IMG/VR virus record: IMGVR_UViG_3300015024_000001
Coordinates: 32,001 to 96,000 of that record
Origin: a virus
Length of the DNA stretch: 64,000 nt
Reading direction: 5' to 3' (one strand)
In this document: one piece after another, positions 58,157-60,092 of the stretch
How the letters are laid out: each line of letters opens with the position of its first letter
Numbering within the stretch: position 1 is the stretch's first letter
The notes under the pieces: generated by a model
Seen by the model: only the letters and a program-made list of their open reading frames with translations
Databases searched by the model: none
What the model was told of the DNA's origin: nothing
Program-made: the position numbers and the translations under genes

Positions 58157-58361
58157 TATACAAATTGTAGAGCTTATAAGTTATGGTGACTTTGACATGC
58201 CTATGACTGATTCTGTTTGGTATGGTGCAGAAACATTAGAAAAACCTAATGAGTTGAAGTTCTATAAAAACACAAATATAGAAGAAGCGCGTCAGTATCT
58301 TGTAGATTTGGGTTTTATATGTGTCCCTACTTTTAGATTTGAAATTGGTGGTGGAGTATAA
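58149..58361 (+). CDS. hypothetical protein
   Basis: ORF with GGTGG RBS. Confidence 0.5.
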   Translation: MINIQIVELISYGDFDMPMTDSVWYGAETLEKPNELKFYKNTNIEEARQYLVDLGFICVPTFRFEIGGGV

Positions 58362-58458
58362 GATTTTCTGTAATTATAATATTAACTAATATACTATATT
58401 AAAGAAATGTTAATTATTTGTGCTACAATTGTTGTTTAATTATCAACAGGATAAATTT

Positions 58459-58717
58459 AATGTCACATAAATCTGATGATACTGTTTTAGAAATTTTATT
58501 AGGTGCTGTTGTAATATTTGGGACACCTACTCTAGCAGGATGGGTCTTTATGTTACTGTGGAACTTTGCTCTAGTAGGATTGTTTCCATCAATCCCTACG
58601 TTAGATTTTTGGCGTAGTGTTGGTTGTGTACTATTTCTTAGTTTTATTAGTAGTTTCTTTAGCTACCAAGTGAAAGCCCCGCATTCTAACGGTACTCCGT
58701 TGAGTGACGGGATGTAA
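58459..58717 (+). CDS. small membrane protein; 3' end supplied by the IS left end
   Basis: MLLWN......FP.IPTL.FW motif common in phage membrane proteins; insertion near the 3' end. Confidence 0.6.
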
Positions 58718-58735
58718 GCGCGTCCATCAAGGGGT

Positions 58736-58885
58736 TCAATGCCCCGTAGATGGACAGTCTTCTGGGGTATCTTGCTGCTCAATATATTTCTTGAGGATAG
58801 AAACAGTTACACCGCCACAAGAAGCGATGGAATATGACTCATTCCACAAAACACTTTTCCAGTAATGTTTTTTCACTTCATCGGC
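58736..58885 (-). pseudogene. tnpA: IS200-family Y1 transposase C-terminal fragment
   Basis: KHYWKSVLWNESYSIASCGGVTVSILKKYIEQQ; HUH-bearing N-terminal part missing. Confidence 0.85.
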
Positions 58886-58940
58886 TTTATTAGCTTTAAT
58901 TGTTGTATAATAAATACTATTAAAGCCAATAAAATAGACT

Positions 58941-59516
58941 ATGGATAAACACGTTAACGATTTACAGGTTTGCACTATTTGTAAAGTAGAGCAACCTCTT
59001 GAAAACTACTACAAATCTTCAAAAAGAAAAACTGGGTACTCAAATACTTGTAAGCAATGCTCTTTAATCTATGTAAAGAAACATAATGCTTCTGCTGAAG
59101 GGAAAGAGAAAAATACGGCTTGGAGGCATGTGGCAAAAAGTAAAAGACTATCCCAAGGATTTTGCTCTAAATGCGACAGAGAGAGAATGTCTCAAGATGC
59201 CCTATTTTGTAAATGGCATTGCGTTCAACACGCTTGCGGTAGCAGATTGGGTAAGGCAGATAAACTTACAGTGCAATTGCTATTAGATAGACTAGAGTCT
59301 AATCCTATTTGCCCTTACACTGGGAAAACTTTAGTGCTAGGAATAAATACTCATTTAGACCATATCTTGCCAGTAAGTAGATTTCCAGAATTTAAAAGCC
59401 AAGTGCTTAATGTTGAATGGATTTCTGCTAAGGCTAATTTATCAAAAGGAGATATGACAAAAGATGAGTTTATTGCTTTTTGTAAATTAGTTGTTAAATT
59501 TGCGGATAGTCAATAA
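58941..59516 (+). CDS. zinc-finger HNH endonuclease
   Basis: CTIC..CKQC and CSKC..C..H fingers; CPYTG......HLDHILP.SR.....NVEW....N.SK. Confidence 0.85.
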   Translation: MDKHVNDLQVCTICKVEQPLENYYKSSKRKTGYSNTCKQCSLIYVKKHNASAEGKEKNTAWRHVAKSKRLSQGFCSKCDRERMSQDALFCKWHCVQHACGSRLGKADKLTVQLLLDRLESNPICPYTGKTLVLGINTHLDHILPVSRFPEFKSQVLNVEWISAKANLSKGDMTKDEFIAFCKLVVKFADSQ

Positions 59517-59720
59517 AGCTCAGTGCGCTTCCGATGCAATAGCAGGATTAGCTGAGAAGCCCACCCTATACTCGTCCGCGAGTTAGGGATGGGAGTCGTC
59601 ACAAAGTAATTATGGCATACATTGACAAGACACTACAGAAGATGATTGCTATTGCACATAGCAAACCACAGTTACCATTATTTCACGACACACATTTAAT
59701 AACATTTAGGAGTATCCAAA

Positions 59721-60092
59721 ATGGACAACCCACAACAACAGCTTTTAAATAAGATTACCTCACTAAAAACTTACATAGAGTCATACAAGGAAACTATTGG
59801 AATCCACCTGGCAGATACAAAAGTACCACTTGAAGAACGCTGGTTAGTATACCAAGAACTACCTTCTTTTCTACGGAATAACGAATGTGATCAACAGGAC
59901 TTTCTTATAAAAAGTGATGGTTCTTTTATAGAACTTTGTGATGTTGGTGAATATTCTAAATATGAAATGATCGAAGTACACAGTTTTCTACAAAACAAAG
60001 CAAAAAGTCTACTAGATCACAGTCTTGACATTGTAGCAACAAAAGAGTATATTCTAAAACACAATCTAGGTTCTTTCAAGAACGATTGGTAG
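59721..60092 (+). CDS. hypothetical protein
   Basis: AGGAG RBS. Confidence 0.65.
   Translation: MDNPQQQLLNKITSLKTYIESYKETIGIHLADTKVPLEERWLVYQELPSFLRNNECDQQDFLIKSDGSFIELCDVGEYSKYEMIEVHSFLQNKAKSLLDHSLDIVATKEYILKHNLGSFKNDW

Follow-up and report, generated by a model that had tools for sequence, protein, structure and literature searches.

A tnpB-less IS605-family derivative in a virus genome, probably filled by a protein-only HNH cassette

How can an insertion sequence (IS) of the IS200/IS605 family retain both of its ends and carry a gene for an HNH nuclease in the place where tnpB is expected? The question is raised by a locus in a stretch of 64,000 nucleotides (nt), hereafter the window, which corresponds to bases 32001–96000 of a 131,991-bp virus record (IMG/VR record IMGVR_UViG_3300015024_000001; G000). 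The original prediction, made from the letters of the window, had suggested a passenger homing-type HNH mobilized in trans, an HNH that had taken over the role of TnpB, or a plain deletion remnant. Based on the comparisons below, we consider the locus to be a non-autonomous cyanobacterial IS605-family derivative whose interior was filled by a protein-only HNH cassette, such that nested selfish elements and a deletion derivative are combined. We assign this reading a probability of roughly 60%. The features of the locus are as follows.

58460–58717, plus strand: interrupted phage gene for a small membrane protein (85 aa in the window, from the list of open reading frames, ORFs)
58658–58662, plus strand: target pentanucleotide TTTAG, directly 5' of the element
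58663–58755, plus strand: left end, with hairpin 1 at 58678–58711 and hairpin 2 at 58722–58755
58736–58885, minus strand: 3' remnant (last third) of tnpA, encoding a Y1 (HUH) transposase; Pfam Y1_Tnp, E 9.5e-10
58883–58927, plus strand: candidate cassette promoter, with TATAAT at 58906–58911 between inverted repeats
58886–59501, plus strand: HNH cassette, 616 nt
58941–59516, plus strand: HNH endonuclease gene, 191 aa; PHROG 1035 "endonuclease VII", E 4.8e-22 over residues 9–186
59502–59602, plus strand: right end, consisting of the tnpB 3' remnant and the omegaRNA tail (3' arm of hairpin H1, H2 at 59519–59556, H3 at 59560–59593, terminal GTCAC)
59603–59618, plus strand: right flank and would-be guide of the right-end RNA (AAAGTAATTATGGCAT), which holds the original stop codon of the interrupted gene

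For the boundaries, contigs of public metagenome runs (four runs) were aligned to positions 58300–59900. One contig in each of X1 and X3, which together represent a single sample, joins 58662 to 59603 and skips 940 nt. The joint is unambiguous, with zero shared letters. The IS605-family derivative thus occupies 58663–59602, begins with CT and ends with AC. These positions replace the earlier boundaries of 58667–59625, because the bridging contig places 59603–59625 in the flank. Similarly, the left flank ends in TTTAG rather than in the GCTAC proposed before, which was four bases off. The two contigs also supply the empty allele that had been anticipated in related phages. Since this allele lacks all 940 nt, the HNH gene included, the HNH gene arrived inside the transposon shell, in agreement with the part of the original prediction that regarded it as a passenger. 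The virus record contains one match to the element, which is therefore present as a single copy. The left ends of two related loci (L066 and L086) are likewise preceded by TTTAG, by reading, and this pentanucleotide would serve as the target-adjacent motif of a cognate TnpB. Insertion 3' of a fixed tetra- or pentanucleotide, without target duplication and with an exact empty site, is the pattern of the IS200/IS605 family.

The insertion affects the very end of a phage gene. The N-terminal part of the interrupted protein matches PHROG 2169 "membrane protein" (E 9.1e-06). P0152, a protein of 69 aa known from other assemblies, has an N-terminal part identical to that of the interrupted protein and ends in Arg-Lys-stop. 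This end matches the one predicted from the 58662/59603 joint, so the gene of the empty allele encodes 69 aa. The element sits five bases before the stop codon of this gene and swaps the last two residues of the 69-aa membrane protein for 18 others. An alternative with in-frame flanks at 58667/59603, which implies a gene of about 132 aa and the target CTAC, is excluded by P0152 and the bridging contig. A word-index homologue search with the membrane protein returned one match only, and no relatives of P0152 were found among viral contigs. The DNA of the region had zero matches in the phage collection, and the closest matches to the studied parts of the window are cyanobacterial. At window positions 58363–58376, in the spacer upstream of the membrane-protein gene, the related phage contig from X1/X3 has 25 other letters and a repeat of 14 window bases.

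The two ends of the element have the layout of an IS200/IS605 member, with imperfect subterminal hairpins on one strand and without terminal inverted repeats (both hairpins have the same layout, by reading). When folded as DNA, the left end reaches -21.9 kcal/mol (z -4.73), a value equaled by none of 200 shuffles. The left-end hairpin described before is the one at 58678–58711, and the second hairpin is an addition. The left end is 74% identical to that of L066 over 58674–58851, and positions 58675–58723 are 88–90% identical to several cyanobacterial loci. Among 401 cyanobacterial genomes, 35 have matches to the left end and 33 to the right end. The right-end hairpin was not found as an exact pattern in viral contigs. 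The predicted 3' fragment of a divergent tnpA is also present, on the minus strand, and covers only positions 76–121 of the 121-position Y1_Tnp profile. The HUH motif of the Y1 family, which we take to lie in the N-terminal two thirds, is gone. Judged from what is left, this remnant shows descent from the IS200/IS605 family and not a working transposase.

The right end retains traces of tnpB. Between the HNH stop codon and the right end lie 86 nt, as against an earlier estimate of about 85, and these include the predicted right-end hairpin (59560–59593) and GTCAC. Positions 59503–59586 encode the last 27 codons of tnpB, 23 of which are identical to the C-terminus of TnpB in the cyanobacterial locus L086 (by reading), and a small ORF at 59491–59586 is the relic of this C-terminus. 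The statement that the element has no RuvC/TnpB ORF therefore holds, although tnpB is not wholly gone. L086 has an intact tnpB of 409 aa, and its tail is 90% identical to window 59505–59605 over all 101 nt. In an alignment of 28 tails, the consensus fold has three hairpins, with compensatory changes in 17 of 26 pairs, and the loop of H1 carries the VG[H/R] codons. The L086 tail folds into H1, H2, and H3 (z -3.2). The window tail keeps all 11 pairs of H2 and eight of the nine pairs of H3. Its H1 does not form in the single-sequence fold, the 5' arm having been replaced by the end of the HNH gene. Single-sequence folds were used here because the H1 counts in alignment A3 are misleading for the window and L086 (both 4/6, in another register). 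Since it has no TnpB ORF, and only 27 codons and a tail without the H1 5' arm, the element counts as a derivative rather than a complete member of the IS605-type subgroup. In the Rfam searches, no family (HEARO and the group I intron included) reached the gathering threshold, and the six matches at E ≤ 10 were at chance level. An assignment to group I introns or IStrons is likewise not indicated, as no Rfam intron match occurs in the window or in 58300–59900. No tRNA was found.

What the cassette replaced is indicated by a contig of X4. This contig (3046 nt) matches window positions 58658–58885, with 14 other letters, and 59502–59602, with one other letter in 101, and has 1461 letters where the window has the 616-nt cassette. 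The homology with this HNH-free contig ends at 58885. At 58882/58885, contigs of X1 and X7 have loose ends that run on as coding sequence of tnpA, and a loose end at 59502 reads as the tnpB end '...AINVKNLAVG' (both by translation). L066 has a related left end and a tnpA remnant, followed by tnpB. The X4-type contig is most likely the parent with tnpA and tnpB. Given the junctions in tnpA and at the seam between tnpB and its omegaRNA, the 1461 nt that were lost probably comprise the 5' two thirds of tnpA, the promoters, and tnpB except for its last 27 codons. The explanation as a deletion remnant is supported. The order tnpA-HNH-tnpB suggested for the ancestor is not; the order is instead tnpA, tnpB, HNH, and right end, and in L016 tnpB lies directly upstream of the HNH gene. 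Contigs of the four runs do not cover the HNH cassette at 58894–59487, which is not evidence of absence.

The cassette appears to bring its own promoter. As predicted, TATAAT is flanked by an inverted repeat, GGCTTTATTAG (58883–58893) and CTATTAAAGCC (58917–58927), which is complementary at 10 of 11 positions by reading; the pair was also found by a repeat search. A scan for consensus promoters did not call the TATAAT at 58906–58911. The repeats may represent an operator, and a comparable layout is present upstream of the HNH gene of L016. In a Microcystis locus (L018:2961-3004, read on the tnpB strand), a TATAAT-like box upstream of the start of a short-form HNH gene lies among three GTACG-containing repeats that resemble the seam. 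Through these repeats, the nuclease may repress its own promoter.

The HNH gene itself is intact, and its final 15 nt are former tnpB sequence. The encoded protein has two Cys4/Cys3His zinc modules, followed by a catalytic domain of the HNH_4 type, which bears out the zinc-finger HNH ORF of the original prediction. The protein retains each of the 20 columns that are invariant in a 20-row alignment of the family, among them C11, C14, C37, C40, C75, C78, C90, H93, H141, N157, and N166, and the AlphaFold2 model has a mean predicted local distance difference test (pLDDT) score of 95. The protein is a full-length member of the stand-alone HNH family (PHROG 1035 / HNH_4 type). Pfam HNH_4 matches 12 of the 20 family members, whereas the window protein alone, at 16.8 bits against a cut-off of 22, falls short. 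Among solved folds, the HNH domains of Cas9 come nearest, with a weak match (E 4.4e-04) over the C-terminal half only. The family has 2363 representatives at E ≤ 0.001, mostly of 170–200 aa, and its full-length relatives in mycobacteriophages are annotated as HNH or endonuclease VII. By these relationships, the window HNH is apparently a protein-only enzyme of a common free-standing phage type. No RuvC or PLMP match was found in the 191-aa protein with Pfam, and no match to the RNA-binding domain of IscB or Cas9 in the fold search of its model. A word-index homologue search with the HNH protein gave two matches only, and no relatives of this single protein were found in viral contigs. A 115-aa form (P0002 cluster) lacks the catalytic half and shares 84% identity with the window HNH over the N-terminal 113 residues of the latter. 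It is on record from at least 25 contigs of several sources.

The nearest relatives of this HNH occupy one fixed spot in both IS605- and IS607-type elements, namely the hairpin that comes first after the final RuvC motif of tnpB. The closest relative, in Microcoleus (L016), is 52% identical and lies between a 386-aa tnpB and a tail that is 79% identical to window 59512–59564. On either side of this cassette is a 12-nt copy of the tnpB '...GCGGTAGGGCAT' seam, and through this repeat L016 retains H1 with six of six pairs. Short-form HNH genes occur in Microcystis (L018, L051/L052 from a metagenome, and L116 on a plasmid), in G070 (L034), and in a further metagenome locus (L048). These short forms are found at the same seam in the opposite orientation, with imperfect repeats of 14 nt, and in L018, L034, and L048 the cassette directly follows '...GGGCA[T/C]'. 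An HNH-free Microcystis paralogue of L018 (L021) is 83–85% identical and lacks exactly 447 nt at the seam. In plasmid p1 of Microcystis aeruginosa NIES-2481 (L116; NZ_CP025929.1, 126050-126451), the short-form HNH gene overlaps the 3' end of an annotated tnpB and is not listed separately in the gene table, which is itself known to be incomplete.

A second HNH clade (226 aa; L002, L043, L047, and L056) is found after tnpB in IS607-type elements, with a serine-recombinase gene upstream. HNH-free copies of these elements have flanks that are 98–100% identical, and the cassette of about 641 nt lies inside the first hairpin after '...AAINLKNLAAKLP'. In this IS607-type group, one of 35 related viral tnpB loci has an HNH gene. 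Three alleles were seen at the seam in L120, L121, and L043, again with flanks of 98–100% identity: the hairpin in a short version, in a longer version, and in the longer version with an HNH cassette inside. In the HNH tree (41 rows, of which 22 lack a tnpB/IS-adjacent label; two fragments shorter than 120 aa were left out beforehand), the window protein pairs with L016 (support 98/96) within a nine-row clade, eight rows of which are tnpB/IS-adjacent. A TnpB search of 42 loci with an HNH match found TnpB adjoining the HNH in 11, and L049/L050 add two with a short tnpB remnant.

Two more shells have lost tnpB. In Chlorogloea (L017), the body of tnpB is gone; codons 1–35 abut the HNH stop codon, and the tail lies beyond the HNH start. 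In L049/L050, the first 40 codons of tnpB are joined on immediately upstream of the ribosome-binding site of the HNH gene, and the HNH gene and tail are 98.9% identical to those of L043. Together with the window, this gives three shells in which, independently, the deletion of tnpB stops at the edge of the cassette. The same three shells place an HNH gene next to an omegaRNA tail, and the catalytic domain is of the HNH_4 kind that is also found in Cas9. Both facts speak for the reading, considered in the original prediction, that a stand-alone HNH has taken over the role of TnpB and is guided by the right-end RNA. The other evidence makes this very improbable. The protein is an ordinary full-length member of a family that mostly lacks an IS or RNA partner, and its 191 residues are filled by the two zinc modules and the HNH domain, with no match to the RNA-binding domains mentioned above. 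In L017, L018, L034, and L048, the HNH gene is on the strand opposite to the tail. Rfam gave no family match. The tail of the window has its first hairpin destroyed and differs from an HNH-free copy in one of 101 letters, which means that there is no sign of adaptation to a new partner.

Another explanation is that the HNH gene is inert or host-useful cargo at one tolerated spot, that the loss of tnpB is ordinary decay, and that in the phage the protein may be a nuclease against host or rival DNA. HNH and TnpB identities co-diverge (61 vs. 59%, 61 vs. 66%, 64 vs. 59%, and 52 vs. 56% in the pairs compared), both orientations are found at the seam, and the ORF in the window is intact and on the strand of the neighboring phage genes. 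Moreover, the family is mostly free-standing outside of IS elements, as 29 of the 42 loci have no TnpB match. However, presence/absence of the cassette between copies with 98–100% identical flanks points to its recent movement as a unit, and HNH genes of two clades are found at the equivalent seam of tnpB lineages that are unrelated. In addition, random decay does not predict deletions that stop at the cassette edge in three independent shells. We regard the cargo explanation as unlikely, though it is the strongest of the alternatives.

For the nested derivative that we favor, the boundaries, the empty allele, the replacement of parent sequence, the family of each part, the recurrence at the seam, and the presence/absence of the cassette are observed, and the following history is proposed. 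The element would descend from a parent in which two hairpin ends enclosed tnpA on the minus strand and tnpB on the plus strand. It was inserted in the phage gene after TTTAG, and the empty allele still circulates. The HNH cassette may have colonized an IS605-type transposon at the tnpB–omegaRNA seam, and tnpB and most of tnpA would then, or thereby, have been lost. The left junction of the cassette lies in tnpA, and the right junction in the loop of the hairpin that follows the final RuvC motif of tnpB (VG[H/R] codons). The HNH would be a nuclease of the homing type that cuts seams devoid of an HNH gene and is copied into them as they are repaired; homing by the window HNH is suggested by the fixed seam, the flanking repeats, and the presence/absence between near-identical copies. 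Loss of tnpB may have resulted from one-sided or microhomology repair, with TCGGC read at the left and GCGG at the right junction. The resulting shell could presumably be moved only by a cognate TnpA in trans, and the leftover tail RNA would be an orphan.

Several points weigh against this history. Homing is deduced from position and polymorphism. The co-variation of HNH with TnpB is explained by long co-residence at least as well as by frequent horizontal homing. The seam may be the sole place that tolerates cargo, and plain homology-driven homing does not predict that both cassette orientations occur. The tnpA and tnpB content of the 1461 letters in the X4 contig is drawn from their length and from the loose ends of other contigs. 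Other copies of the 940-nt derivative were not found in the virus record or the four runs, which leaves mobilization of the deleted form itself putative. Finally, the HNH family is rare in genomes, with occurrences in 4 of 401 and 3 of 351 cyanobacterial genomes.

The virus record also holds three more IS605-family elements outside the window, one with tnpB only and two with divergent intact tnpA and tnpB, at the following positions.

G000:C1:23197-24309: IS605-family element L036
G000:C1:104542-106068: IS605-family element L037/L040
G000:C1:129429-130498: IS605-family element L038/L039

L036 and L037 have a common left-end hairpin sequence. Near the end of the record, at L038:2900-3000 (about G000:C1:131433-131533), is an inverted partial copy of the 3' end of the L037 tnpB and its right end, which stands apart from any tnpB. 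These three elements were rejected as partners of the HNH-bearing element, since they have no DNA similarity to its ends. Compared with the cognate type, the TnpB of L036 is 38% identical, that of L037/L040 27% identical, and that of L038/L039 has no blastp match; the three TnpBs of the phage are therefore too distant to be the cognate partner.

These TnpBs bear on the possibility that the shell is a working OMEGA unit in trans. Under this scenario, the tail RNA, a guide from the flank, and a cognate TnpB of the host would cut the empty allele of rival phages next to TTTAG, and the whole element, with its HNH, would home. The flank at 59603–59618 would be the guide, as suggested by its position at the joint and by known TnpB elements. 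H2, H3, and the terminal GTCAC are intact, the near-identity of the tail to the HNH-free copy and the circulating empty allele fit, and tnpB elements of the cognate type are present in cyanobacteria. On the other hand, HNH coding sequence stands in place of the 5' arm of H1 and the hairpin is unformed, which differs from the six pairs retained in L016, and the TnpBs of the phage itself are distant or unmatched. A working unit of this kind is accordingly considered improbable, if less so than an RNA-guided HNH.

The nested derivative resembles several known systems in part. IS608 and ISDra2 are the studied models of IS605-type members. Like the IS605-type lineage of L086, L066, and L016, the window element carries subterminal hairpins on one strand at either end, lacks inverted terminal repeats, and is inserted 3' of TTTAG without duplication; the parent has divergent tnpA and tnpB, and the 3' end of tnpB doubles as the omegaRNA scaffold. 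Unlike these members, the window element has only the last third of tnpA, 27 codons of tnpB, and a foreign HNH inside. Non-autonomous derivatives of IS200/IS605 elements include the tnpB-only IS1341-type and the protein-less palindrome-associated transposable elements (PATEs), and internal deletions are common. The window shell is similar to both in having both ends, no transposase, and a dependence on TnpA in trans, but differs in bearing an intact gene that is neither tnpA nor tnpB. In IscB/HEARO, an HNH domain is inserted in a RuvC nuclease that works with an omegaRNA. Common to it and the window locus are the HNH_4-type domain and the omegaRNA, both inside an element of the IS200/IS605 type. 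The window HNH is not an IscB, being a separate 191-aa protein with its own promoter and with no RuvC, no PLMP, and no HEARO match in Rfam.

Free-standing homing endonuclease genes of phages, such as those for Seg and Mob of T4, spread by intronless homing, as described in the review PMC13565253. The window cassette is similar to these in that a small nuclease gene with a promoter of its own occupies a fixed place amid conserved sequences, with presence/absence between near-identical flanks and an insertion that splits or duplicates the presumed target. Unlike Seg and Mob, its "host gene" is the nuclease/guide-RNA seam of a transposon, and both orientations occur. No description of a stand-alone HNH gene at the tnpB–omegaRNA seam was found in the literature searched, judged by titles, the first part of abstracts, and passages, supplementary material aside. 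This includes passages of a preprint on Arc/IS605 (10.64898/2026.09.24.754181) and of PMC13565253, PMC6293099, PMC11237433, PMC9956272, and PMC10690162.

Taken together with the relatives at the seam, these patterns allow a broader and more tentative proposal, to which we give somewhat less than even odds. One homing lineage of the HNH_4 type may be specialized on the tnpB/guide-RNA seam, in the loop of the first omegaRNA hairpin, as a parasite of both IS605 and IS607 elements. It would spread from shell to shell, often with its own copy of a hairpin arm that spares TnpB and the omegaRNA. One-sided repair would delete tnpB and give rise to HNH-only shells that TnpA can move, three times independently. 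As a weaker corollary, such nesting would illustrate how a RuvC nuclease gene could have acquired an HNH_4 domain in the ancestry of IscB and Cas9.

For annotation, these findings account for "TnpB-less" IS605 shells and for unannotated ORFs that overlap tnpB, as in plasmid p1 of NIES-2481. Those who mine TnpB systems should not take an HNH gene that adjoins an omegaRNA as evidence of a new RNA-guided enzyme. If homing to the seam is true, there would be a natural enzyme that recognizes a conserved tnpB/omegaRNA sequence, and OMEGA elements would offer a concrete instance of nuclease-gene nesting. RNA-guided transposon nucleases are themselves colonized by protein-guided nucleases at a precise and recurrent site, and the resulting IS605/HNH hybrids travel into phage genomes.

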